IMG/VR virus record: IMGVR_UViG_2675903650_000012
Location: 1-10,632 of that record
Strand: one strand, 5' to 3'
Source: a virus
Lineage: Duplodnaviria; Heunggongvirae; Uroviricota; Caudoviricetes
Length of the DNA: 10,632 bases
Below are positions 1 through 10,632 of this stretch, in pieces (the first letter of the stretch is position 1; each line of letters opens with the position of its first letter). Under the pieces are notes generated by a model. The model did not search any database and had not been told where the DNA came from. It worked only from the letters and a program-made list of their open reading frames with translations. Position numbers and translations under genes: made by a program.

Positions 1-164
1 CCGGAAGTTACAGGACAATGGCAGGAGGAAAACTACAGCCCGCAATACGAAAAAGGCCACGCAGTTGCGCAGCCTTATGAATTCTGGTTAAAATCCATTC
101 GATTATAAAAATGTATATCTCATGCTGTTGCCCGAACCCACTCAGGCTTTTTTTTGCCCACAAG

Positions 165-395
165 AAAGCCCCTCCGGAGAGGGGCTAAAGCCGCGTATCT
201 GTATCATCATGCACATGGTGCCGGGTGCCTCCCGGTGAGTTCAGCCCGGTGCCACTAAACCCGCGTCATTCTCGTTTTGATAATCAGAAATTATACCGTC
301 ACCAGTCGCCCCTCCGCTCAGGGGGATTCACCATGCGAAATTTTTTTAACAAATGCCCAGTCTGACAGGCAACTGTCAACTTACTGAATTGTGAG
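165..395. repeat. Structured repeat module, copy A: GC hairpin (168..185), ~120-bp imperfect palindrome closed by catggtg/caccatg (214..336), and conserved downstream blocks
   Basis: Identical or near-identical blocks shared with copy B: aaagcccctccggagaggggct; catggtgccgggtgcctcccggtgagttcag; gcccctccgc(t/a)cagggggattcaccatgc; ttttaacaaa; ca(a/g)c(t/a)gtcaac; ctgaattgtgag. The sequence between blocks has diverged. Confidence 0.6.
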
Positions 396-430
396 CAACA
401 TAGCATTTAACGGGGAACCTGTTTTCTGCA

Positions 431-459
431 GTAAAAAGGCCCACCGGAGCGGATGGGCC
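431..459 (-). terminator. Candidate rho-independent terminator on the minus strand, between the two repeat modules
   Basis: Stem ggccca/tgggcc (438..443 / 454..459) with a 10-nt loop; on the minus strand the hairpin is followed by a run of five T (complement of A 433..437). Confidence 0.45.
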
Positions 460-651
460 TGGAAGGATAGCGGTCATGTGATGCCGGTTTCCCGGTAACT
501 CAGCACCGGTATCTGAGTCAACGTTTTCTCTACTGGGTCATTTCCGATACGCCCTGCCTGCTGACAGGCTTTCATCACATCTGAAAATATAGCACCCTGA
601 CTGATACTGTAGTACCCAAGGTTCCAGAAACTGTGATGTATCCGGCACAGA

Positions 652-878
652 AAAGCCCCTCCGGAGAGGGGCTGGAGAGTGGCGCTATGTGCCATTGCAT
701 GGTGCCGGGTGCCTCCCGGTGAGTTCAGTATCAGCACCTGAACCCGCACAGAAAGGATAAGGGTCGGTGACAAAACACCAGTTGCTGATTGCCCCTCCGC
801 ACAGGGGGATTCACCATGCCAGTTTCTTTTAACAAACTCCCCGCAAACCAGACAACAGTCAACCGCCTGAATTGTGAG
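652..878. repeat. Structured repeat module, copy B (paralog of 165..395): hairpin 655..672, palindromic core 698..819
   Basis: Same ordered conserved blocks as copy A with different intervening sequence; the gttcag...ctgaac hairpin is perfect here and has one mismatch in copy A. Confidence 0.6.
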
Positions 879-1002
879 GTATTTAAAAATTTCAACGGGT
901 AACTGATACCCTGCTAATCGCCTGATGCTTTCTTTTTCAGCAACGGGAAAGCAACAACCACCACACCCACCAGCCGCCCATTTACCACAAATAAAAAATC
1001 CT

Positions 1003-1200
1003 TCACTGCGGAAGGCGTCTGTAACAACCGAACTGATAGTCTGCCAGACCCGCCATAACCAGCTGGGTCAGTATTAACTGGCAGCGTTCGCGTGAAAGGT
1101 AAGTATTCTGCGCAATCTCCCCGACTGTCGCCGGTTCGGTGGCACTTAATTCATTAAACACCACTCTGGCGGTTTCTGTCATATCCTGCTGTTTTAGCAT
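1003..1200 (-). CDS. Small hypothetical protein (65 aa) with an HTH/winged-helix-like segment, downstream of Q
   Basis: Taken from the internal ATG (MLKQQDMTETARVV...) of the 1003..1293 ORF, preceded by a purine-rich gggaaaaagac; the upstream GTG start in the track lacks an RBS and would overlap the terminator region. The segment ATVGEIAQNTYLSRERCQLILTQLVMAGLA resembles a DNA-binding HTH. Confidence 0.45.
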   Translation of the reverse strand: MLKQQDMTETARVVFNELSATEPATVGEIAQNTYLSRERCQLILTQLVMAGLADYQFGCYRRLPQ

Positions 1201-1320
1201 GTCTTTTTCCCTTTTCCGGTTAACGTGACACACCAATAACTCTTGTCGAAAAAGCCAGCAAGCTGAAAGACCGGTATTCACCACCACCAGCACGTTTACT
1301 GTACTGATGCGATTTCAGTC

Positions 1321-1347
1321 ATAAAAAACCCGCCAGGCGGCGGGTTT
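1321..1347 (-). terminator. Strong intrinsic terminator directly downstream of Q (tR'-like position)
   Basis: Perfect 6-bp GC stem cccgcc/ggcggg (1329..1334 / 1339..1344) with a 4-nt loop; on the minus strand it is followed by six T (complement of A 1323..1328). It lies ~60 nt after the Q stop codon. Confidence 0.65.
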
Positions 1348-1404
1348 AAGTTGTGTGGCGTAGTAACCACTCTTAACATACTGACATACTTTTTGCGGAC
1401 CGCG

Positions 1405-1797
1405 CTAATCATTTTTTACTTTTTTGGGCAGCCAGTCGTCCATCTCCAGCCTTACACCCAGCATCGACAGACATCCGTCAATAAATCCTTCAGCAATCTG
1501 CATCTCAATTCGTATTGCCTTTTCGCTCTTCTTTCTTGTTCTGGCAATCTGCCTTTTTGATATGCGCAGCAGATAATGAGCTACCAGCAGCGAATACTCG
1601 TCCGGTTTTTTCTTCTTCAGGCGCGTAAGGCAGTTTTCGATGATAAGGCCGTCATCATCGCTGCAGGCCGGGCGAGGTTTAGCGGTGGATGGTAAAAGGC
1701 CTTTAAATCCAGCAGCTATCGGAGAATAGTCCACCCCGGCGTTACCACTTGCCGCCCATGCCCCCCAGCGTTCGAGAACCATCTGAATATCACGCAT
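1405..1797 (-). CDS. Q: Late-gene antitermination protein Q (QuuD/phage-21-type Q family)
   Basis: Translation from the ATG at 1797 (MRDIQMVLERWGAWAA ... RLEMDDW...), with GGAG 7-10 nt upstream; the track start at 1812 is a TTG. The N-terminus and the ~130-aa length match my memory of E. coli cryptic-prophage Q proteins (QuuD-like). It is the last gene of the nin-region operon. Confidence 0.7.
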   Translation of the reverse strand: MRDIQMVLERWGAWAASGNAGVDYSPIAAGFKGLLPSTAKPRPACSDDDGLIIENCLTRLKKKKPDEYSLLVAHYLLRISKRQIARTRKKSEKAIRIEMQIAEGFIDGCLSMLGVRLEMDDWLPKKVKND

Positions 1798-1814
1798 CAA
1801 CTTTCTCCACAAAA

Positions 1815-2810
1815 TCAGGACAGCACACCAATCGCCAGCGCGCGATCGATAAAACGAAATATCAGCTCCAGCTGGGAGCCATACTTCTCTTCAAATGCCA
1901 CGGTATCCGCATGCAGCTCGTCGTGATGCTTTCTGCACAAAGGCAACACAAAGAGGTCATGCGCTTTTGTAGCCATTCCACCCTGACCGTGACCTATCAG
2001 GTGGTGGGGATCATCAGCAGGCTTTCCACAACATGCGCACGGCTGCGTCTTAACCCAGCGCGTGTACTTTTCATTAACCCAGCGGCGACGTTTTGGGCGT
2101 AACATAAAAGACTCCGGCGACTCCGGATCCACTTTCAGCGCCAGCACCTTTTTCGCTTTATCCCGGATAATACTGGTGGCGGGAACCGAAGGCACAAGGT
2201 CACTTTCCCGGGTGACAGACGGCACAACCGTCTTCGGTAATCTCAGTACCTTACGGGCTGCACTTTCCGGTAAGGCATCCGCCAGGTCATTACGAATCAG
2301 CCACCAGCACAGTTCCGGCATTGTCACAACGTGACTGTCATCAAAACCGAGATCCCGACGCACAACAGACAACACCCAGCGGGCACAGTTATCCGTTGCC
2401 ATTGATTCCAGCCGTTCCGTGAACTGATCGCGCAGCTGGTTATCGCAGTGCCAGCACAGACGGATTGCGCCCGGAGCGTGTCGCATTGTGGTCATGTTCT
2501 CGCTGTGCCATCCGGAATGAGGCCACTGGCAGCCTTTTTCACGAAGTAACCAGCTTTCAAGACATTCCACGCCACCAGCACGACGGATCACTGCCTCATG
2601 GCGGAACACGGACCGAACGGCAGGATCATCCGCCAGCGGTTGTGATGCCGCCGGAACGGCACCACTGGCGAAAGATGAATAACGCTCCGGCTCAGGCTCC
2701 AGCAGGACACGCCCCTGCATAAACAGGGGCATCAGCTCTGAACCTGGCCTGAACAATACGATCCCCATACGCGGGGCAATTTCAGGGGTCAGTAGTGCTC
2801 TCACAGTCAC
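1815..2810 (-). CDS. DUF968-like phage protein (YdfU-like) with a C-terminal Cys/His zinc-finger or HNH-like motif
   Basis: 331-aa ORF; C-terminus CACCGKPADDPHHLIGHGQGGMATKAHDLFVLPLCRKHHDELH (C-x2-C ... HH ... C ... HH ... H). It sits immediately upstream of Q, as ydfU does in Qin-like prophages (from memory). Start uncertain: GTG at 2810 or GTG at 2804 behind a GAGG. Confidence 0.7.
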   Translation of the reverse strand: MTVRALLTPEIAPRMGIVLFRPGSELMPLFMQGRVLLEPEPERYSSFASGAVPAASQPLADDPAVRSVFRHEAVIRRAGGVECLESWLLREKGCQWPHSGWHSENMTTMRHAPGAIRLCWHCDNQLRDQFTERLESMATDNCARWVLSVVRRDLGFDDSHVVTMPELCWWLIRNDLADALPESAARKVLRLPKTVVPSVTRESDLVPSVPATSIIRDKAKKVLALKVDPESPESFMLRPKRRRWVNEKYTRWVKTQPCACCGKPADDPHHLIGHGQGGMATKAHDLFVLPLCRKHHDELHADTVAFEEKYGSQLELIFRFIDRALAIGVLS

Positions 2811-2811
2811 C

Positions 2812-3627
2812 TCAATGAACGGTATCGAGCAGCTTTAACAGCTCAGGAAATCGGGATTCGAAGAAATGCGGCTGCGTCTCGCGCGGATTTGCAGGACTGG
2901 TGATGTTCTTGCCGAACATGCAGCCTTTCGCGGTCAGCGACCAGAATTTTTTGATGTTGTTAATCGCGGTACGGCTGTATCGTTCGCGTTGTTCAACGAT
3001 CCCCAGCTTCGCCATCTGGTGATATGCCTGATTAGCCGTCAGGCGGATACCATACTGCTTCAGCAGTGCACTCAGCGACAGCGTAGGGCGGCTTGAACCA
3101 TCTGGCGCATCAGCAGGTGCATCAATGGCATAGATCGGCATAAGTTCAGGAAGACCAGCTACCTTTGATAATTTCTGGTATGCACCAAGTTTCGAGGAGT
3201 TTGACAGATTTAGAGTCTTTGCTGCTGATTCAAGCAGAATGACCCCGGATTTAATTTTGTCGGATGTGGTTTCTTCTGGTGATGAATTATGAAGCGCATC
3301 AAAAGTACGTATCACTTTTAAGCTGAATGCCGGGCTGATCCACATTGCATATGCATAGACCAGCTCTTTACAGACATACGTCCCACCATTGCGCCCCTGA
3401 ATGGTGATGACAGGAATACTACGGGAATCTCCCGTAGTTTCTTCTTCCAATAATTCCACAAGAGCCTTCGTTTCAGGACGACGCATAAACTCGTGAACTT
3501 CCAGCGAACGGGAGGAGCGATTCTCACCAGCGGCAAGAAGAGCAGCTTTCTGAAGGTCGTTAAGACAGTAGTTAGATTCGAAGTACTGGCGCACAGAAAC
3601 GCCATCAATTACAAGCAACTGATTCAT
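2812..3627 (-). CDS. KilA-N domain protein
   Basis: Translation from the ATG at 3627 (MNQLLVIDG...), with GGAG 7-10 nt upstream. KilA-N hallmark GGTYVCKELVYAYAMWISPAFSLKVIRTFD. The C-terminal half (from about residue 150) is a separate, unassigned region. Confidence 0.75.
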   Translation of the reverse strand: MNQLLVIDGVSVRQYFESNYCLNDLQKAALLAAGENRSSRSLEVHEFMRRPETKALVELLEEETTGDSRSIPVITIQGRNGGTYVCKELVYAYAMWISPAFSLKVIRTFDALHNSSPEETTSDKIKSGVILLESAAKTLNLSNSSKLGAYQKLSKVAGLPELMPIYAIDAPADAPDGSSRPTLSLSALLKQYGIRLTANQAYHQMAKLGIVEQRERYSRTAINNIKKFWSLTAKGCMFGKNITSPANPRETQPHFFESRFPELLKLLDTVH

Positions 3628-3724
3628 TGGTTTCTCCACAAATTTTTATCCACGAGCGGGACTGCACTCCCTTTTCGTTGATGCAGGATGAACTTACTGC
3701 GATTTTTAATAGTTATCAAGGATA

Positions 3725-3744
3725 CACTGTTCATAAATACAGTA
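3725..3744. promoter_or_regulatory. LexA-box-like palindrome (SOS-box candidate) upstream of the KilA-N/DUF968/Q genes
   Basis: CACTGTTCATAAATACAGTA: CTGT (3727..3730), an 8-nt AT-rich spacer, ACAG (3739..3742); 16 of 20 positions match the consensus TACTGTATATATATACAGTA as I recall it. Flanked by GATAC (3721..3725) and GTATC (3742..3746). Lies in the 160-bp gap between rusA and the KilA-N gene. Confidence 0.4.
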
Positions 3745-3789
3745 TCTTTAACGAGGTAATACCCAAATTTAGGGTGTTGCTCAATTCCG

Positions 3790-4185
3790 TTACCGAGTTG
3801 CTAATTTGCAACTCGCTTTTTCGTACTTACTGATAGTGATCTCGACCTTCCCTTCCGGGATAACCGGTCCCCACTCCACCAGCATTCTTTTCACCTGGCT
3901 GTCGTCTTCCCACACACCCGCGTGGGTCAGGGCGTCAAACAGCGCCTTGTTATAGTTGTCCAGATCGCGGATCCGGTTATCCGGAGGAAACAACACGATC
4001 TCCACTGAAGCAGGTGCCGACGTTGGTTTCGGCAGACGACGTAACTGCTCAACTATTGCTGCACACGCCGCGCTCTGGAATTTTCGCCCCGCCGCGCTTA
4101 TCAGGCTCTTACCAGCAAACGCCCCTTTGTTGGGGTGTCGCCAGTACGTGTTCACGCTGGGCGGAAAAGGCAGTATTAGCTTCAT
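3790..4185 (-). CDS. rusA: Crossover junction endodeoxyribonuclease RusA (Holliday junction resolvase)
   Basis: 131 aa; N-terminus MKLILPFPPSVNTYWRH resembles RusA (...LPWPPSNNRYYRH) and the catalytic-region motif RIRDLDNYNKALFDAL is present. The ATG overlaps the upstream stop (ATGA). Confidence 0.9.
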   Translation of the reverse strand: MKLILPFPPSVNTYWRHPNKGAFAGKSLISAAGRKFQSAACAAIVEQLRRLPKPTSAPASVEIVLFPPDNRIRDLDNYNKALFDALTHAGVWEDDSQVKRMLVEWGPVIPEGKVEITISKYEKASCKLATR

Positions 4186-4835
4186 GCCACCATCTCCCTG
4201 ACCAGTTTTTCCGCCTGCTGGCGAACCTGCGCCAGAAATGCCTCACCACATGCCTCAAGTTCATCGCGCCCGATGTAGCTGATTGCCGGTCCCTTCCAGG
4301 TCTTGTCGAAAACAGCAATAGCACCAGCGAAGAAAGCACCTGTTGGCACCTGCTTTTCGTCTTTCGGGATAAACCAGGCAGGCAGTTCAAAACCAATACG
4401 CCCGCGAATAAAAGCAATATGATCTGCATCTTCCGGCCACCACACTTCGCTGGTGGCAGCTTTGATCAGGAAAACATAGCGCCCGCCTTTATCACGCATG
4501 GCAGTGGCATGCTTCATGATGTAACGCATGCCGGTGATGTATTGCCCCTCATGCTGACTGGCGCGGCTGTACGGGGGATTGCCAAAGGCAGCACCTTTAA
4601 GCTCCGCAAGACGTTCTGACCAGTCATGCGCCAGCGCGTTGTCTTCCGCCGTGTAATACGCGGCACATTTGGCGTTATCACCGTCAGTGAACAGATCCAG
4701 AACAAACGGACCAAACAAGGTGTTAATTCCCCAGAAAATGTTATCCGGCGTGCGCCACTGATCTCCCACTTCCTTCAGTTCATGGGCTGGTTTATTCCGC
4801 AGTTCCACCAGCGCCTGGCAATATTTATTACTCAT
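4182..4835 (-). CDS. Phage DNA N6-adenine methyltransferase (Dam-type)
   Basis: 217 aa; NPPY catalytic motif (AAFGNPPYSRA); typical nin-region methylase of lambdoid phages. Start ATG overlaps the stop of the upstream 30-aa ORF (TAATG). Confidence 0.85.
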   Translation of the reverse strand: MSNKYCQALVELRNKPAHELKEVGDQWRTPDNIFWGINTLFGPFVLDLFTDGDNAKCAAYYTAEDNALAHDWSERLAELKGAAFGNPPYSRASQHEGQYITGMRYIMKHATAMRDKGGRYVFLIKAATSEVWWPEDADHIAFIRGRIGFELPAWFIPKDEKQVPTGAFFAGAIAVFDKTWKGPAISYIGRDELEACGEAFLAQVRQQAEKLVREMVA

Positions 4836-4927
4836 TAAGCCCCCACGTAAAAAGCATCCGCAATGTCTCCGGAAGTACAGCCAGGATGGGCTTCAATGAA
4901 TTTCTGAACTTCATTCAAAAGACTCAT
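4835..4927 (-). CDS. Small ORF (30 aa, MSLLNEVQKFIEAHPGCTSGDIADAFYVGA), hypothetical
   Basis: Not in the ORF track (too short). Strong SD AGGGGGTG 5 nt upstream of the ATG; its stop overlaps the methylase ATG (TAATG) and its start lies 2 nt after the O-like stop. Confidence 0.35.
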   Translation of the reverse strand: MSLLNEVQKFIEAHPGCTSGDIADAFYVGA

Positions 4928-4929
4928 GA

Positions 4930-5913
4930 TCACCCCCTGAATCCTGCCGGAATCTGGCTGTAGTCCACGTTGTCGTAACTGGCTTTGAAGTACGGGTCCT
5001 CGCGTCTGGCTGCAGATACCGCAGGAACTTCCCAGGATTCTTCGAAATGACGATCCGGACCAAAGAACGTCGACGCCTGCTTCACGAACTGGGTACCGGT
5101 ATTTCCAGAGACACGCACCCAGGCGGCATAGCGTTTCACACCGTCGAGCATGGTTTCGGGTGTCACACCTTCCCTGATTCGGGCTTTCCAGGCTTTAAAA
5201 GCGGCGGATTTTGAATTACCACCAGCACGTTTGGGATATTCCTGCCAGGCCTGTTCAAATTCCGGTGAATATTCCTGTCGGGCAGAACGCGCTGGCGCAG
5301 ACGCGTCAGCGGATGCATCAATAGTGTTTTTAGTCTCCGTTGTAATCTCTGTAGTAATCTCTGTATTTGTATCAACATTCAGCGTATCCCCTGTTCCGTT
5401 ATGACGTCGGGGGGTGTTCCGTTTTAACGTAATAGCTGTATCGCTGATTGCATTATTGCTGTTACTTTCTGGCGAAACAGAAGAAGGTGTGGTGATGGCC
5501 GCAATTGCCTGTGGGTTGATCCCGACAAACAAAATATTGCTGCATTTCACCCCATCGAGCATTTCCACCGTGCGTAAATCCAGAGTAATAAACCCTGCAT
5601 CGCGCAGACGCTTCAGCGCATCTGCGGTTTCCCTTTTCCCGAAACCAAACTGCTCAGCAAACGCCTGGTAGCTTCTTTGCAGTTTGTCGCCCTGAAAACG
5701 CTTGCGATATCCCAGCAACGCTCCGGTGTGCTCATCCCTGACCTCTGTCGGGCGGTACCAGTAAACGATCTCTGAAAGCAGAGCGATAGCCGTCGCATCC
5801 GGACGCCCACTGGGTAGTCGAATATATTTCCACCAGTTCGCAGGTGTAACATTGCCGGAAATATTAATTTGACCAATAGCCATAACTTCCGGTGTGGGGG
5901 CGTAACGGCTCAT
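4930..5913 (-). CDS. Phage replication initiator / replisome organizer (lambda O-like), with iterons inside the gene
   Basis: 327 aa; N-terminal region (...IVYWYRPTEVRDEHTGALLGYRKRFQGDKLQRSYQAFAEQFGFGKRETADALKRLRDAGFI...) resembles DnaD/replisome-organizer N-domains. A central linker (TEITTEITTETKNT, ASADASA) is encoded by direct DNA repeats, as ori-lambda lies within O. Confidence 0.65.
   Translation of the reverse strand: MSRYAPTPEVMAIGQINISGNVTPANWWKYIRLPSGRPDATAIALLSEIVYWYRPTEVRDEHTGALLGYRKRFQGDKLQRSYQAFAEQFGFGKRETADALKRLRDAGFITLDLRTVEMLDGVKCSNILFVGINPQAIAAITTPSSVSPESNSNNAISDTAITLKRNTPRRHNGTGDTLNVDTNTEITTEITTETKNTIDASADASAPARSARQEYSPEFEQAWQEYPKRAGGNSKSAAFKAWKARIREGVTPETMLDGVKRYAAWVRVSGNTGTQFVKQASTFFGPDRHFEESWEVPAVSAARREDPYFKASYDNVDYSQIPAGFRG
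5333..5380. repeat. Candidate origin iterons inside the O-like gene
   Basis: tagtctccgttg / taatctctgtag / taatctctgtat / ttgtatcaacat: tandem 12-bp units, with two exact gtaatctctgta copies at 5342..5353 and 5354..5365. Confidence 0.5.
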
Positions 5914-6209
5914 ACAACCTCCTTCCGCGGCATGAGAATTGTGTAGCCACGCGCAGGTTGTAGTCTGGCTTTTGCATCAATAGTAAGCGTTGCAATTTTT
6001 CGGATATGAAGATAACCAGCTCTTTCCAGTGCCAGGGTTTCCCTGAATATCGCTTGCTTAGAACAACAGCAGAAATCAGCAAGCACCTGATGATCAATAA
6101 CTCTCTCGCCTTCACCGTCTGAAGAACCCGACATCAAAACACGCAACATAATCAGGCGCTGAATCGGGTTATCGAAAGCACATCCGCACACAAACTGAAA
6201 ACAGTTCAC
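5910..6209 (-). CDS. Hypothetical protein (99 aa), translationally coupled to the O-like gene
   Basis: Stop overlaps the O-like ATG (ATGA at 5910..5913) and start overlaps the upstream stop (6206..6209). Cys-rich (CGC, CCC); a possible HTH at QAIFRETLALERAGYL. Confidence 0.5.
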   Translation of the reverse strand: MNCFQFVCGCAFDNPIQRLIMLRVLMSGSSDGEGERVIDHQVLADFCCCSKQAIFRETLALERAGYLHIRKIATLTIDAKARLQPARGYTILMPRKEVV

Positions 6210-6430
6210 GCCACACCTCCCAGACGCTTAAACATTTTTCCGGAGCAAAAGGCTATAAGCGGCATACTGATGCGGTAATTACGGCCCAGCGGTTCACAAA
6301 TCACCTTCTGACATTCACGGTCAACCAGGCTGACACGTAGAACATGCCCTGCAGGCGTGGTGTACCACTGACCAGGACGAGGACAACGGAAAGTCTGATT
6401 GGTAAACCGTTTGAAAATATTCCGGATCAT
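6206..6430 (-). CDS. Hypothetical protein (74 aa)
   Basis: ATGA overlaps with both neighbours; same strand and operon context. No family recognised. Confidence 0.45.
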   Translation of the reverse strand: MIRNIFKRFTNQTFRCPRPGQWYTTPAGHVLRVSLVDRECQKVICEPLGRNYRISMPLIAFCSGKMFKRLGGVA

Positions 6431-7587
6431 TTGCGCCCCCTTACCTCTGAAGGGTTCAGCGACAAATTTATGAGACTGGCCAGTAGCGCCGCGTCGTTGA
6501 TGCGGTCATACAGACTTACAGCCAGCGGGGATTCGGCTTTTGCCAACATGGGATAAAGCTGCTGCAGCCAGACCTTGTGGATTACCGACAGGTGGGAGTA
6601 AAGCACGCTGGCGTTATCTGCGGCATCGCTCAGCGTGGATGGCTTTGAAAGCAGTTTTTCCATCTGGTTAAAGGCATTGATGTATGCCTCTTTGAACCGG
6701 GCAGCACGTTTACCCGTGAAACCCATAGCAAGAAACGCAAAACCGTCTCGTGTGATTTGATAGCAAGGGAGCTTGCGTGTACCACCGTTCGGTTGATTTA
6801 CCGAAATCGATGTCTCCGCAAAATTGCGGGCACAAAACTCTGGGGAACAATCCAGAGTGCGGATCTTTTTCAGCACATCGTCGTGACGCTTGGAGAAGGA
6901 GTTGGCAACAGCCAAAGAAGTGGTAACGGCCTGGCCGTTGTCAATGGTGATTTCAGGTTGAGTGAGGGCTGGGATCGTAGCCATGATGGCAGCCTCCGTT
7001 GACAGTGAAAAACTTCCACCACCGGAAACGCCAATTTCACTGGTGGTGAACTGGACGGGGTTGGCGTAACCGGCGTCAACGGAGACCGGCGCACCTTTCG
7101 GTGCCCCCGCCCAGCCCACCATAATCTGGATGTGAGCAAATGCGGACGATAAAAAAGACGCTGGCGCGTCATACATCGCCGTTGACAATTTCAGGACGCC
7201 AATCCCGGCACCCGCTTTATAAGGTGCCTGAACAGTGTAACGTCCCGGAATGGCAGAATCAATGTGCTGGTGGTCCTTCACACTCAACAAAATCACGCCT
7301 GAATTTCCACAAAGGACTAAAGCACTCATGCTGGTAGTCTTTGCGAAGATAGATAACGCGCTGTGTTTCTGGCTCCCAACGAATAACATGAACATAAAGT
7401 CCTCTTCCGTCACGAAACCAGCGGTTAAGTTCCTGCACAACTCGCCCCCCACAGTCAGGTAAAGTTCTCTGTGGTTACTTACAGCCAGGTGATTTGGTAA
7501 TCTGCATTCATGCCGTAACAACAGGTGTTCAGCGACGCTGACCACCAGCTGTTGCGACAAACGGTTATTTGCCGTTAAACTATTCAT
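6427..7587 (-). CDS. Rha-family phage regulatory protein with a ~200-aa N-terminal extension of unknown function
   Basis: Residues ~205-320 (MATIPALTQPEITIDNGQAVTTSLAVANSFSKRHDDVLKKI...YQITRDGFAFLAMGFTGKRAARFKEAYINAFNQMEKLL) match the Rha N-terminal domain. The ORF continues in frame ~200 aa upstream (Gly-rich linker VSGGGSFSLS) and its ATG overlaps the stop of the CII-like gene (ATGA at 7584..7587). Confidence 0.65.
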   Translation of the reverse strand: MNSLTANNRLSQQLVVSVAEHLLLRHECRLPNHLAVSNHRELYLTVGGELCRNLTAGFVTEEDFMFMLFVGSQKHSALSIFAKTTSMSALVLCGNSGVILLSVKDHQHIDSAIPGRYTVQAPYKAGAGIGVLKLSTAMYDAPASFLSSAFAHIQIMVGWAGAPKGAPVSVDAGYANPVQFTTSEIGVSGGGSFSLSTEAAIMATIPALTQPEITIDNGQAVTTSLAVANSFSKRHDDVLKKIRTLDCSPEFCARNFAETSISVNQPNGGTRKLPCYQITRDGFAFLAMGFTGKRAARFKEAYINAFNQMEKLLSKPSTLSDAADNASVLYSHLSVIHKVWLQQLYPMLAKAESPLAVSLYDRINDAALLASLINLSLNPSEVRGRK

Positions 7588-8153
7588 GCGTTAGTTTCTC
7601 CACAACCAGAAGCAATCGACGCCACGACGCCCGGAGCTGCACACTCGCGGGCGTTACTATTTTCTGGAGCGCAGAAGATTTTGTAGACCAGTGCTGCATG
7701 CTCCTGGAGCTTCGAAATTGAGAGGTACAGCTCGTCGTTAATTGCTGTCTTCTCATGCGGTTCCACTACACCGTCTTCGATTGCTGAACGAATCTGTCTG
7801 GAATAACTGCCGATCTGTTCAATGACTTCCAGCAGACGCTGGTTAATATCGGCGTTGTCCACATCCTCGACGTCAGGAAGAGACACAAAGACGCCATTTG
7901 CAGACTGCGCCACAGCGTCAGCAATGAAGTGAGTTCCACCAGCACGTTGTAAAATCATTGCCCATCCCAGCGGGAAAATCTGATCGCCATCGGCACGAAG
8001 GCGATTGAATAAAGCGTTCTCTGTTACATCCAGCCACTCAGCAGCTTCAGCGTAACCCCCCGGCAACGCCGCGATAGTTTTTCTGACAGCTTTCACGTAC
8101 CACTCAGGCTGTTTTTCTACTTTCCAGTGATGCTTACCCACGGTTAGCCTCAT
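7584..8153 (-). CDS. Putative CII-like / YdaT-like regulator (189 aa)
   Basis: Second gene after the Cro-like gene, the usual CII/YdaT position. Putative HTH GGYAEAAEWLDVTENALFNRLRADGDQ. No SD is visible upstream of the ATG (cagaacg ATG). The family assignment is positional and weak. Confidence 0.5.
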   Translation of the reverse strand: MRLTVGKHHWKVEKQPEWYVKAVRKTIAALPGGYAEAAEWLDVTENALFNRLRADGDQIFPLGWAMILQRAGGTHFIADAVAQSANGVFVSLPDVEDVDNADINQRLLEVIEQIGSYSRQIRSAIEDGVVEPHEKTAINDELYLSISKLQEHAALVYKIFCAPENSNARECAAPGVVASIASGCGETNA

Positions 8154-8184
8154 CGTTCTGTGGTTAAAAATTGAAGGTGTTCTG

Positions 8185-8385
8185 TTAATCTTTCGGATAG
8201 ATATCCGGTCTTAAGTCAGATTTCGTAATTGCACCTGACGTGCATTGCTCAAGTTTTTTAGCCAGCACAAAACTGGCTTTTTTATAACCATTGAAAACCA
8301 GCCGTAAGTAGCCTGGTGTTGAGCCAACTTTTCCGGCCAACTCGCCCTGCTGTTCTTTGGTTAAAGAGTCCCAATACGCTTTCAT
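8185..8385 (-). CDS. cro: Cro-like HTH regulator (YdaS-type, 66 aa)
   Basis: Translation from the internal ATG at 8385 (MKAYWDSLTKEQQGELAGKVGSTPGYLRLVFNGYKK...LRPDIYPKD), with GGAGG ~10 nt upstream. The C-terminus (...TKSDLRPDI) resembles YdaS (...CEELRPDI). The longer 167-aa ORF would begin upstream of the predicted pR start site and overlap the operators. Confidence 0.7.
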   Translation of the reverse strand: MKAYWDSLTKEQQGELAGKVGSTPGYLRLVFNGYKKASFVLAKKLEQCTSGAITKSDLRPDIYPKD

Positions 8386-8390
8386 ACAAT

Positions 8391-8470
8391 ATGTACCTCC
8401 GATATACATATTACATGATTGAGATGAACCTTCAAGATACTTGTACCCTATCGGTACAAAGGTTTTAATT
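8391..8470. promoter_or_regulatory. Divergent switch region (OR-like): candidate pR (minus), candidate pRM (plus, leaderless cI), and two 19-bp operators
   Basis: Operators ATGTACC-tccga-TATACAT (8391..8409) and the perfect palindrome TTGTACC-ctatc-GGTACAA (8441..8459). Candidate pR on the minus strand: -35 TTGAAG (8430..8435), 16-bp spacer, -10 TAATAT (8408..8413). Candidate pRM on the plus strand: -35 TTGTAC (8441..8446), 17-bp spacer, -10 TTTAAT (8464..8469), placing the start site at or next to the cI ATG (8476). Confidence 0.5.
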
Positions 8471-8475
8471 TCGTT

Positions 8476-9150
8476 ATGAAAACAGTCCATGACATCCGGC
8501 GGTCTAACGCCAGAAAACTGAGAGATGGTGTTGGCGGGAATTCTTCCTTTGCCACCATGATTGATCGCGAGCCAACCCAGACCAGCAGGTTTATGGGAGA
8601 TGGTGCTACTAAAAATATCGGTGACAGCATGGCACGGCACATCGAAAAATGTTTCGACCTGCCTGTCGGATGGCTTGATCAAGAACACCAGACAACAAAC
8701 ATCACAAAAAAACCTGATGTTTCAATTACTAACAAACAAATAACGTTAGTCCCTGTCATATCATGGGTACAGGCCGGAGCATGGAAAGAAGTTGGCTATT
8801 CTGAGGTTGATTTGAGCACAGCAGAAACTTATCCCTGCCCTGTACCCTGTGGCGAAATGACTTATATCTTGCGGGTGATTGGTGATTCAATGATTGATGA
8901 GTACCGCCCGGGAGACATGATTTTTGTAGATCCTGAAGTCCCTGCCTGCCACGGTGACGACGTTATTGCATTGATGCACGATACAGGCGAAACCACCTTT
9001 AAGCGGTTGATAGAAGATGGAACACAGCGTTACCTCAAAGCATTAAACCCAAACTGGCCTGAACCTTACATTAAGATCAACGGTAATTGCTCTATAATTG
9101 GCACAGTAATTTTCTCAGGAAAACCAAGAAGATACAAAATAAAGGCCTAA
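8476..9150 (+). CDS. cI: CI/C2-type prophage repressor (HTH N-domain plus S24 LexA-like autopeptidase C-domain)
   Basis: 224 aa; C-domain LVPVISWVQAGAWKEV...VIGDSMIDEYRPGDMIFVDPEV...TFKRL...LKALNPNWPEPYIKINGNCSIIG closely resembles P22 C2 / lambda CI. Catalytic Ser (GDSM) and Lys (TFKRL) are present, as is an Ala-Gly candidate cleavage site (VQAGAW). Confidence 0.9.
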   Translation: MKTVHDIRRSNARKLRDGVGGNSSFATMIDREPTQTSRFMGDGATKNIGDSMARHIEKCFDLPVGWLDQEHQTTNITKKPDVSITNKQITLVPVISWVQAGAWKEVGYSEVDLSTAETYPCPVPCGEMTYILRVIGDSMIDEYRPGDMIFVDPEVPACHGDDVIALMHDTGETTFKRLIEDGTQRYLKALNPNWPEPYIKINGNCSIIGTVIFSGKPRRYKIKA

Positions 9151-9161
9151 TCAATATTTAT

Positions 9162-9185
9162 AACCTGCTTCGGCAGGTTTTTTTA
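9162..9185 (+). terminator. Intrinsic terminator of the cI transcript
   Basis: Stem aacctgc/gcaggtt (9162..9168 / 9173..9179) with loop ttcg, followed by a T run through 9184; begins 12 nt after the cI stop. Confidence 0.7.
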
Positions 9186-9188
9186 TAC

Positions 9189-9221
9189 TTGACAATGTAC
9201 CCTTGAGATACATAATGTATC
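9189..9221 (+). promoter_or_regulatory. pL-like promoter with overlapping operators
   Basis: -35 TTGACA (9189..9194), 16-bp spacer, -10 CATAAT (9211..9216). Operator ATGTACC-cttga-GATACAT (9195..9213) has the same architecture as the two OR sites; a perfect 15-bp palindrome GATACATaATGTATC (9207..9221) overlaps the -10. Confidence 0.6.
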
Positions 9222-9633
9222 TAAAAGAAACATGTCACAGGCAAGATTAAACAAAATTTGGTTGTAACACGGCGTATGGCACATGCGTCGTTAGCGGTCT
9301 GGGGACGTTAAAGGGGACAATCCACTCCTTGCTCGGGCAAACAAACCAGGTAGCCGGAATGTGCAAGTCAATGAGGATGCTGATAAGACGCCTAACCAGC
9401 GTGGCGATTCGGTTTGACGCCTGGGAAGAGACCAGGGTGCAACGATGAGGGCATTTATGGAACCGCGACAAAGTATGGTGCCGTAACTGGCTAAGTGCTC
9501 TCAGCGTTGTGGTAATCCGCGAAATGGCGCGGCGGTAAGTATGGCGGGGTTATTCCTTCCCCGTTGAGGACACCGGGTTGTCAGGTTGACCATACGCTTA
9601 AGTGACAAGCCCACCACAACAGCCACTGCTTTG

Positions 9634-9679
9634 GCGGTACCAGTTTGTACACTTGCTTCCGGCTGGTACCGCTCTTTTT
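9634..9679 (+). terminator. Strong intrinsic terminator inside the long leader downstream of pL
   Basis: Perfect 10-bp stem gcggtaccag/ctggtaccgc (9634..9643 / 9663..9672) with a 19-nt loop, followed by tcttttt (9673..9679). Confidence 0.6.
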
Positions 9680-9816
9680 ACAAAACAGAGAAGAGCATCA
9701 CCGGACGACGGGCTCATAACCCAATCCACCCGGGCGGCTGCCACCGCAGGTGTTCTTCTCTGTTTTGTGGAGAAACCAACCGACCTTGCAGGGTCGATAT
9801 GATGAGGAGCAGCAAA

Positions 9817-10179
9817 ATGGCTAGCGAACGCAGTACTGATGTGCAGGCATTTATCGGGGAGCTGGACGGCGGCGTATTTGAAACCAAAATCGGCGCTGTT
9901 CTCAGTGAAGTCGCTTCAGGTGTGATGAACACGAAAACCAAAGGGAAGGTCTCGCTCAACCTGGAAATCGAACCGTTTGATGAGAACCGTGTGAAAATAA
10001 AACACAAACTCTCATATGTTCGTCCGACTAACCGCGGGAAAATTTCCGAAGAAGACACCACCGAAACGCCGATGTATGTCAATCGCGGTGGTCGCCTGAC
10101 TATTCTGCAGGAAGACCAGGGACAATTACTGACTCTTGCCGGTGAACCTGACGGAAAACTCCGCGCAGCAGGTCATTAA
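9817..10179 (+). CDS. Hypothetical protein (120 aa), first gene of the pL-side operon
   Basis: Translation from the ATG at 9817 (MASERSTDVQAFIGELDGG...), with strong SD GAGGAG (9804..9809) 7 nt upstream. The upstream in-frame extension to 9586 runs through the terminator hairpin and begins at a TTG. Acidic, with no Arg-rich motif, so not N-like. Confidence 0.6.
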   Translation: MASERSTDVQAFIGELDGGVFETKIGAVLSEVASGVMNTKTKGKVSLNLEIEPFDENRVKIKHKLSYVRPTNRGKISEEDTTETPMYVNRGGRLTILQEDQGQLLTLAGEPDGKLRAAGH

Positions 10180-10244
10180 TATCGTTCTTAATTAACTGAT
10201 TATTTATCTCATCACTGAATATCTTTATATAGTGAGGACTTATT

Positions 10245-10628
10245 ATGTCTCAGAACTTAGACGCAACCGCAATTAATCAAATCCATGCCCTTATTTCTGC
10301 GCAGGGTGTTAATGAAATTATCAGTAAGATTGGTGCCGATGCTGTGGCATTGCCTGAGAATTTCCGCATTCATGATCTGGAAAAATTTAATTTAAATCGC
10401 TTCCGTTTCCGTGGTGCGCTTTCCACTGCCAGCATCGATGACTTTACCCGTTATTCTAAAGATCTTGCAGATGAAGGCACCCGCTGCTTTATCGATGCTG
10501 ATAATATGCGTGCCGTCAGTGTGCTTAACCTGGGTACTATTGATGAACCAGGTCACGCAGATAACACCGCCACTCTCAAACTGAAAAAGACAGCACCGTT
10601 CTCTGTGTCAACGACGGATGAAAAGTGA
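10245..10628 (+). CDS. Hypothetical protein (127 aa)
   Basis: Complete ORF from ATG to TGA, with SD GAGGA ~7 nt upstream (agtgaggacttatt ATG). No family recognised. Confidence 0.6.
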
Positions 10629-10632
10629 TCCA

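Follow-up and report, generated by a model that had tools for sequence, protein, structure and literature searches.

RNAs of the DicF type stop cells from dividing and also rewire metabolism and virulence; DicF itself binds Hfq and represses the translation of ftsZ. Some other small RNAs (sRNAs) are linked to tRNAs, for example those that RNase P or RNase E frees from the spacers of tRNA operons. In Escherichia coli K-12, the DicF RNA of the Qin prophage (dicBF) occurs as a 190-nt form, whose 5' end is generated by RNase III, and a 53-nt form generated by RNase E (bioRxiv 10.1101/2023.04.14.536235). Its 3' end is set by Rho-independent termination, or by RNase III acting on read-through RNA, which gives 72 nt (PMC5069750). 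Enterohaemorrhagic E. coli carries four dicF copies (PMC7873438). The put RNAs, by comparison, are ~70 nt long and consist of two stems joined at the essential residues G35/G36 (PMC9378689). Here we compare these systems with part of a virus record of the Caudoviricetes (IMG/VR IMGVR_UViG_2675903650_000012, positions 1 to 10,632; these 10,632 nt are the window), namely the interval 9222-9816 between a pL-like promoter and yfdP. This interval forms the untranslated start of the early-left (pL) operon, and we consider it likely that termination and processing of the transcripts of derepressed pL give rise to a DicF-family sRNA, with the terminator attenuating the left operon. An earlier note on the same DNA had pointed to a region that is real and interesting, but its elements were misread: the leader is a cassette of conserved RNAs, arranged as follows.

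9269..9439, plus strand: A1, a predicted pseudoknotted RNA (covariance model R1, 132.8 bits, E 2.6e-40)
9440..9505, plus strand: P5, a covarying helix (GAGGGCAUUUAU ... CUAAGUGCUCUC) that closes a variable insert, followed by AGCG
9506..9620, plus strand: T-domain, tRNA-like; its closing helix is GUUGUGGU/ACCACAAC, AA is followed by a D-arm-like hairpin, and the 3' hairpin stacks on the closing helix
9621..9679, plus strand: DicF-like module, made up of a single strand (AGCCACUGCUUU), a hairpin of 13 bp (9633-9673) and a U-tract; intrinsic terminator and predicted attenuator
9680..9768, plus strand: yfdP leader three-way junction, with a 20-bp outer stem (9680-9699 with 9749-9768) and arms A and B

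Nucleotides 9505-9628 share ~92% identity with the part of MG1655 Qin that lies directly 5' of dicF, and the T-domain is best read as the orthologue of the K-12 segment that forms the 190-nt DicF species. Its closing helix covaries between the two loci (GUUGUGGU/ACCACAAC in the window versus GUUGUGGC/GCUGCAAC in K-12), and the domain is present in 4793 of 5426 complete E. coli genomes. Just downstream, 9630-9651 and DicF nt 13-33 agree at 19 of 20 positions, with an alignment score of 30 compared to a shuffle mean of 12.5 +/- 2.1 (0/2000 shuffles). We take the terminator to be the 3' module of a DicF-family sRNA and the 115 nt before it to be the long DicF precursor domain, neither of which had been recognized earlier. 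Like dicBF, the window unit lies in a repressor-controlled early operon of a lambdoid element and contains a nearly identical ~115-nt structured domain directly 5' of the sRNA. The core UUUGGCGGUAYCAGUUU is common to both, as is a Rho-independent terminator as the sRNA 3' end, here a predicted 13-bp stem followed by CUUUUU. In both, downstream genes would be reached via read-through only, and a duplex after the terminator would be open to RNase III. The loci differ in what surrounds the sRNA, with A1 and P5 upstream in the window instead of ydfABC, and the three-way-junction leader and yfdP downstream where Qin has a second STnc100-like domain and dicB. Judged by sequence, the window unit is related by descent to the Qin dicBF leader and would work like it.

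The terminator itself had been described as a 10-bp stem at 9634..9679. The element is genuine, but its stem is longer, with 13 pairs (9633-9645 with 9661-9673) followed by CUUUUU (-21.2 kcal/mol, z = -4.2 versus shuffles). We aligned 18 orthologous leaders from >10 genera (Escherichia, Mangrovibacter, Enterobacter, Atlantibacter, Leclercia, Superficieibacter, Phytobacter, Kosakonia, Scandinavium, Pseudocitrobacter and Providencia) and found that 9 of the 13 pairs change on both sides. For the terminator and the yfdP leader junction together, 85% of alignment cells are paired, compared to 38–50% when the partners are slid; 26 of 52 pairs change on both sides, a result matched by none of 500 shuffles. 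An attenuator and an unrecognised non-coding RNA were among the readings offered by the earlier note, and both fit a covarying terminator past which all pL transcripts would run and which belongs to a DicF-family module.

In sister cassettes, a tRNA occupies the position of the T-domain. Contigs of phiV10-like and other phages carry A1 and P5, the junction ...GUGCUCUC-AGCG-UUGUGG..., and then a bona fide tRNA-Arg(UCU), with the DicF-like hairpin-terminator ~40 nt past the tRNA. The P5-AGCG junction is the same before tRNA-Arg or T-domain, so that P5 ties A1 to either. The T-domain shares with the tRNA this 5' junction (AGCG/UUGUGG) and an acceptor-like closing helix, and in its fold a two-base linker leads to a hairpin, with a 3' hairpin next to the closing helix. 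Given that tRNA-Arg(UCU) lies directly 5' of the DicF-like hairpin in the sister cassettes, tRNA end-processing there would free the sRNA, and by analogy the T-domain is probably a processing handle, the role played by the tRNA. Unlike a tRNA, the T-domain is recognised neither by ARAGORN nor by the Rfam tRNA model (no tRNA was called in the window), and its processing is predicted. In two Phytobacter ursingii loci (L019, 2222-2300; L024, 1186-1264), ARAGORN calls a tRNA-Ile with the unusual anticodon AAU at the T-domain position, with the acceptor arm GUUGUGG/CCGCAAC.

The T-domain also resembles STnc100/PasD, prophage Hfq-binding sRNAs, in the order of its parts: first the closing helix and AA(U), then a 5' hairpin, a variable middle section and a 3' hairpin that stacks on the closing helix, and finally a short unpaired stretch and a terminator hairpin. 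It is unlike them in its internal sequence and in lying in the early-left leader, not downstream of Q, and the Rfam STnc100 model (RF02076) gave no match to 9495-9700. Variants at the T-domain position score 43.1 (L006), 36.3 (L036) and 36.9 bits (L009) with this model, for a threshold of 47; an SfV-like leader variant with the same terminator reaches 43.1 bits over the full STnc100 length, near the threshold. Elsewhere in the window, Rfam finds two full-length STnc100 sRNAs on the minus strand, at 156-365 (165.8 bits) and 643-848 (141.4 bits). In the prophage of UPEC-245U (NZ_CP049845), which is 100% identical to the queried region, these copies flank a tRNA-Arg/tRNA-Arg/tRNA-Ile cluster downstream of Q, so that domains of this type stand beside tRNAs in the late region too.

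These data suggest the following scheme. Loss of the LexA-like cI repressor would allow pL to fire. The G-rich, tightly folded transcript would be a poor substrate for Rho, and a large share, perhaps most, of the polymerases would stop at the 9679 terminator, leaving a primary RNA of ~450 nt. By analogy with K-12 DicF, this RNA would be trimmed to a long DicF-family sRNA (~175-180 nt, T-domain plus hairpin) and possibly a short one, with the T-domain, at the position of tRNA-Arg(UCU) in related phages, probably serving as the handle. The terminator would thus both make the sRNA and attenuate yfdP-yfdQ-yfdR. Transcripts that read through would fold 9674-9775 into a long stem that RNase III may cut, as for the 3' end of the 72-nt DicF of K-12, and such a cut would split the sRNA from the yfdP mRNA and fix the 5' end of the latter. 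If this scheme is correct, induction of common inducible prophages, including Stx2c- and cdt-converting ones, would itself deliver a diverged DicF-like RNA, and the DicF family would be wider than Rfam detects. The cassette would then illustrate how a phage sRNA gene is assembled, with a tRNA or tRNA-like handle placed ahead of a terminator-borne sRNA.

Several observations weigh against this scheme. An Rfam search over the interval, of the kind proposed in the earlier note, returned nothing credible at the gathering threshold or at E ≤ 10. The Rfam DicF model (RF00039, gathering threshold 48 bits) matches neither 9100-9900 nor 9495-9700 at E ≤ 10, and the STnc100 model misses the window copy even at E ≤ 10; a positional orthologue (L015) scores 28.4 bits (E 0.036) with the DicF model. 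The 5' 12 nt of DicF, which include the seed UUUCUGGUGACG for xylR pairing, are absent from the window copy, and its loop and 3' arm (3' of nt 33, the ftsZ-pairing region) differ from those of DicF. It follows that the targets, including ftsZ, may differ, or that the hairpin may be a terminator only. Since the Rfam tests failed and the seed is absent, we file the window unit as a diverged relative of DicF by sequence, not as canonical DicF. We infer the start site, the efficiency of termination, the processing and its enzymes, Hfq dependence and the targets, as we would any role of A1 or of the initiator-tRNA look-alike described below. The scheme assigns A1 no necessary role and leaves unexplained how enough transcription reaches yfdP. 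Moreover, the order of modules is not fixed, as in phage P1 the A1 element lies downstream of the dicF-like region, beside ban.

A1 appears to be a widespread, previously undescribed structured RNA, common to lambdoid and P1 phages. In the proposed structure, hairpin P1 (9270-9290) is followed by a variable P2 closed by CUGG/CCAG, the invariant GGUAGCCGGAAUGUGCAAG, a variable P3, the hairpin ACGC-CUAACCA-GCGU and hairpin P4 (CCUGG-GAAGAGA-CCAGG). Two pseudoknots are proposed, one pairing the loop of hairpin P1 (GCACAU) with AUGUGC and the other pairing the loop AACC with GGUU. In an alignment of 45 copies, <93% identical to each other, 97.7% of cells are paired in this structure, compared to 25–47% with the partners slid; 12 of the 31 pairs change on both sides, and none of 500 shuffles matches this. 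One pseudoknot pair switches from C-G to A-U in four sequences. The GCACAU/AUGUGC pseudoknot is invariant and unproven, as its invariance is due in part to how the sequences were collected. RNAalifold replaces the local hairpin P1 with a long-range helix, which was set aside because pair 9-21 of the local hairpin goes from G-C to A-U in 22 of the 45 sequences. For P5, 11–12 of 12 positions pair in seven distinct versions, and the distal pairs covary (UAC/GUA, UGG/CCA, UUA/UAA).

Strongly covarying as it is, A1 matches no Rfam family at E ≤ 10, and a literature search on its sequence strings found no match. Its 19-mer GGTAGCCGGAATGTGCAAG occurs in >119 viral contigs among the matches listed. 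By BLAST, A1 is found in phage P1 between trnI and ban, in the P1-like RCS47 and SJ46, in podophages of the phiV10/TL-2011b type, in SPN1S, and in Klebsiella and Enterobacter phages, and the covariance model recovers it in P1 and the phiV10-type loci. It is unannotated in phage P1, beside ban, and in one phiV10-type phage, the two whose annotations were read, and the hit table shows no RNA feature over the other copies. In 86 of 117 contexts A1 is followed by the DicF-like TTGGCGG hairpin, with a tRNA between them in 19. The A1 copy of phage P1 (L117, NC_005856) spans 2514-2691 (129.9 bits), and the sequence following it contains UUUUCUGGUGAUGAC, which is similar to the DicF 5' seed. The same phage has a T-domain-like segment at 230-319, beside the annotated 'dicF-like region' and just after Pban.

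At the other end of the cassette, the yfdP leader junction lies ahead of yfdP in 89 of 91 unique contexts; in the remaining two, the gene that follows is rdgC-like. Its predicted fold (-38.6 kcal/mol, z = -5.8) comprises arm A, with CCGG/CCGG plus GGG-CUCAUAA-CCC, arm B, with GCGG-CUGCCA-CCGC, and the outer stem, in which 11 of 20 pairs change on both sides. RNAalifold lengthens the outer stem onto the U-tract (UUUUUAC with GUGGAGA), so that read-through RNA would hold a near-continuous duplex of ~30 bp, by analogy a plausible candidate substrate of RNase III. The tip of arm A contains a further element.

9709..9722, plus strand: CGGGCUCAUAACCC, identical to the core of the anticodon stem-loop in the E. 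coli initiator tRNA

This segment, predicted to form a hairpin tip with three G-C pairs and the loop CUCAUAA, is near-invariant across genera, in contrast to the variable stems around it. It shares with metY a longest common substring of 14 nt. In shuffles compared with this one tRNA, a run at least as long arose in 2 of 2000; the match is suggestive only, as the choice among ~40 tRNAs must be allowed for, and we treat the likeness as a lead rather than a finding. A mimic of initiator tRNA could engage the 30S P site or IF3, or could act as a decoy for an anticodon nuclease such as VapC.

We entertain, as a tentative and rather doubtful idea, that A1 is a new class of cis-acting phage RNA at repressor-controlled early operons and, separately, that the initiator-tRNA arm of the yfdP leader is a functional mimic. 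A1, at ~170 nt and with two proposed pseudoknots, is shared by temperate phages of the lambdoid, P1-like and epsilon15/phiV10-like kinds, and may in that case be an antiterminator that binds RNA polymerase or blocks Rho, or else a ribozyme or scaffold in the processing of the tRNA/tRNA-like-DicF unit. If A1 does control elongation or processing, early genes would have a second way, put being the first, of being expressed without N. The earlier note had raised put-like antitermination, placing it at the wrong site: the only element reminiscent of put is the 5' hairpin of A1 (9269-9291). As with the put RNAs of HK022, which act in RNA-only processive antitermination by binding the beta' zinc-binding domain and suppressing terminators further downstream, a structured RNA lies near pL and upstream of terminators in an N-less lambdoid phage, with no N-like open reading frame (ORF) in the interval and no boxA. 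In three independent contexts, a promoter with 10/12 matches ends 7-8 nt before A1, as with putL, and A1 has invariant single-stranded and pseudoknot elements typical of a partner-binding RNA. Hairpin P1 and HK022 putL share ACGGCG...CAUGCGUCG..AGCG. This short string is all that the comparison with HK022 yielded: the A1 covariance model finds no match in HK022 at E ≤ 1, A1 has a U at the position aligned with the essential G35 of put (PMC9378689), and its ~170 nt and two pseudoknots differ in size and fold from the ~70 nt and two stems of put. We accordingly rejected A1 as a put homologue. Nor is A1 fixed at the 5' end of transcripts, as promoter scores upstream of A1 over 85 contexts are no higher than in shuffles, three clear cases excepted; in phage P1 it lies far from the promoter, behind three tRNAs. 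There is no second A1 copy after cro, and many yfdP leaders with the same terminator lack A1 within 2.5 kb. It is thus improbable that A1 is a cis-acting antiterminator of the put type, binding RNA polymerase, directing read-through of the DicF-like and later terminators and so replacing N. We regard with similar scepticism the proposal that A1 is a riboswitch, a ribozyme or a processing scaffold for the adjacent tRNA or tRNA-like domain. The compactness of its fold, in which two pseudoknots are proposed and long stretches do not vary, its spread over unrelated phage types and its constant linkage through P5 to a tRNA or T-domain, or its position adjoining tRNA genes, would suit such a role, but no expression platform adjoins it and it bears no likeness to any Rfam riboswitch or ribozyme. 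The motifs GUGCAACGAUGAGGGCA and CCAGGUAGCC resembled RNase P RNA by eye only; local alignment with rnpB scores 19 versus a shuffle mean of 19.3, with no Rfam match, and RNase P RNA was rejected as an identity for A1. The evidence favours neither the put-like role nor a sensing, catalytic or scaffolding one.

Two further explanations concern the interval as a whole. A lambda-type nut site has a conserved boxA resembling CGCTCTTTAACAA, a conserved boxB pentaloop and a cognate arginine-rich N, and the earlier note had read CGCTCTTTTTACAA at 9670..9683 as boxA-like and a hairpin with a GACGA pentaloop at 9693-9715 as boxB-like. The string CGCTCTTTTTACAA is present and looks like boxA by eye, but it lies more than two mismatches from boxA (GCTCTTTAACAA), its GCTC residues differ in orthologues (GCAATTTTTT, GCACTTTTTT, GCCCTTTTT), and it consists of the end of the terminator stem and the U-tract, following the terminator stem rather than preceding a terminator. 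The supposed boxB hairpin is contradicted by the covariation-supported fold, in which 9701-9704 pairs with 9730-9733 in the three-way junction, and its loop varies among orthologues (GGCGA, GGTGA, CAGCGA, TTGCAA). Lambda- or rrn-type Nus-dependent antitermination with these elements as nutL, for which no N-like protein was found among the ORFs of the interval, is the least credible of the alternatives, and the nut site was rejected as neither conserved nor structurally supported. Related SfV-like leaders do have, behind a hairpin, a perfect boxA of the rrn type (CGCTCTTTAACAA or AGCTCTTTAACAA), an element of which the window has none, and these and other relatives may, on this sequence feature, use Nus-factor antitermination; examples, after A1 or a truncated A1, are L006 (~1340-1375), L042, L142, L155 and L197. 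The absence of boxA after cro, claimed earlier, was borne out by a scan of the whole window, where the only match to GCTCTTTAACAA was at chance level.

A scarcely higher probability attaches to the view that the interval encodes small proteins. A plus-strand ORF matches phrog_33599 and a minus-strand ORF phrog_3651 (E values of 5.7e-18 and 1.9e-27), hypothetical ORFs are annotated here in phage records, and YfdP could be extended N-terminally from TTG 9586. Both PHROG families are of unknown function, and a Pfam search of the interval ORFs gave no match; the two ORFs overlap on opposite strands of covarying RNA (9601-9799). Variation in the interval shows no three-base codon periodicity, and the spacing of conserved anchors differs between genera by 2, 5, 13, 16, 23 and 25 nt, which are not multiples of three. 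Furthermore, substitutions are compensatory in RNA helices, including G-U pairs workable on the plus strand only, and in the identical UPEC-245U record the RefSeq annotation is empty from cI to yfdP. From the periodicity, the spacers and the compensatory changes, we judge the interval to be non-coding on both strands; phrog_33599 and phrog_3651 are probably spurious ORF calls over RNA that have been propagated through phage records, and for annotation the two families appear to be built on them. Several claims of the earlier note fare well here, including the lack of a convincing ORF, the lack of an N gene, and a first downstream protein that is acidic and without an arginine-rich motif (YfdP, pI 5.7, mildly acidic).

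The surroundings of the cassette contain the following features.

8476-9150, plus strand: cI, LexA-like repressor (Pfam Peptidase_S24)
9162..9185, plus strand: intrinsic terminator of cI, with a 7-bp stem (AACCTGC/GCAGGTT), the loop TTCG and a T-run
9189..9216, plus strand: pL-like sigma-70 promoter, TTGACA-16-CATAAT, near-consensus (11/12), right after the cI terminator
9207-9221: perfect palindrome GATACAT-A-ATGTATC, overlapping the pL -10 box; candidate operator
9250..9268, plus strand: conserved 5' flank AACAAAATTTGGTTGTAAC, where the conserved module begins regardless of immunity type
9781-9796, plus strand: small GC hairpin
9804-9809, plus strand: Shine-Dalgarno sequence GAGGAG
9817-9819, plus strand: yfdP start codon, in agreement with the RefSeq start

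By sequence comparison, the window belongs to an E. coli prophage that is lambdoid and of the SfV/cdtI/Ayreon/mEp460/Stx2c-phage type. The queried region shares 96–98% identity with phages cdtI, Ayreon and 2H10 and with a series of Stx2c-converting phages. Genes are ordered as a cro-like gene (minus strand), the LexA-like S24 cI, terminator, promoter, gap, yfdP, yfdQ and yfdR, and the order from cI to yfdP is common to SfV, cdtI, Ayreon and the Stx2c phages. The terminator after cI is annotated as such in Ayreon and SfV, and the promoter is annotated in Ayreon. The label pL is reasonable, as cI and the early-left operon are co-directional, as in lambda. The promoter and the ~590-bp gap up to the yfdP ATG at 9817 had been noted correctly, as had the GC-rich character of the leader, which is more exactly G-rich, with a GC content of 0.48–0.57 and a positive GC skew (+0.14 to +0.21) from 9225 to ~9600. 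A second perfect palindrome, TTGTACC-CTATC-GGTACAA, lies in the cI-cro intergenic region (8441-8459); the two are candidate operators with differing sequences.

When compared by BLAST with 114 related loci, the leader resolves into independent sequence blocks. Phages with other immunity regions (mEp460, PhiR40_1) show similarity only from 9250 onward. In mEp460-type phages the sub-block 9521-9611 is replaced by an unrelated segment of similar length, and in SfV-type phages morons separate the first hairpin from the later blocks. The final 190 nt of the leader move with yfdP across genera, and orthologues have a GC hairpin in the same place as 9781-9796 with a different sequence.

Elsewhere in the window, Rfam detects C4 antisense RNA (7039-7126, 81.4 bits) and isrK (7151-7227, 62.2 bits), both on the minus strand and within the same 386-aa Rha-family ORF (6427-7587, minus strand). 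Their location inside this ORF suggests a c4/antirepressor module like P1 immI, together with an over-extended ORF call. Sequence of the yfdP type from enterobacterial prophages also occurs in assemblies labelled Fredinandcohnia, Martelella and Chryseobacterium (L014, L017, L018, L022), on short contigs or in odd contexts, and probably represents contamination. Finally, in Kosakonia and SfV-like loci, the minus-strand moron ORFs of the leader are bracketed by a repeated element (...GTTGTTGGGGA..CCAGG..CCACC..GCCTGATGTGG..AAAAG.CAGGCA), seen for example at 1545-1635 and 2110-2170 of L021 and at 2050-2140 of L006, and often just 5' of A1.

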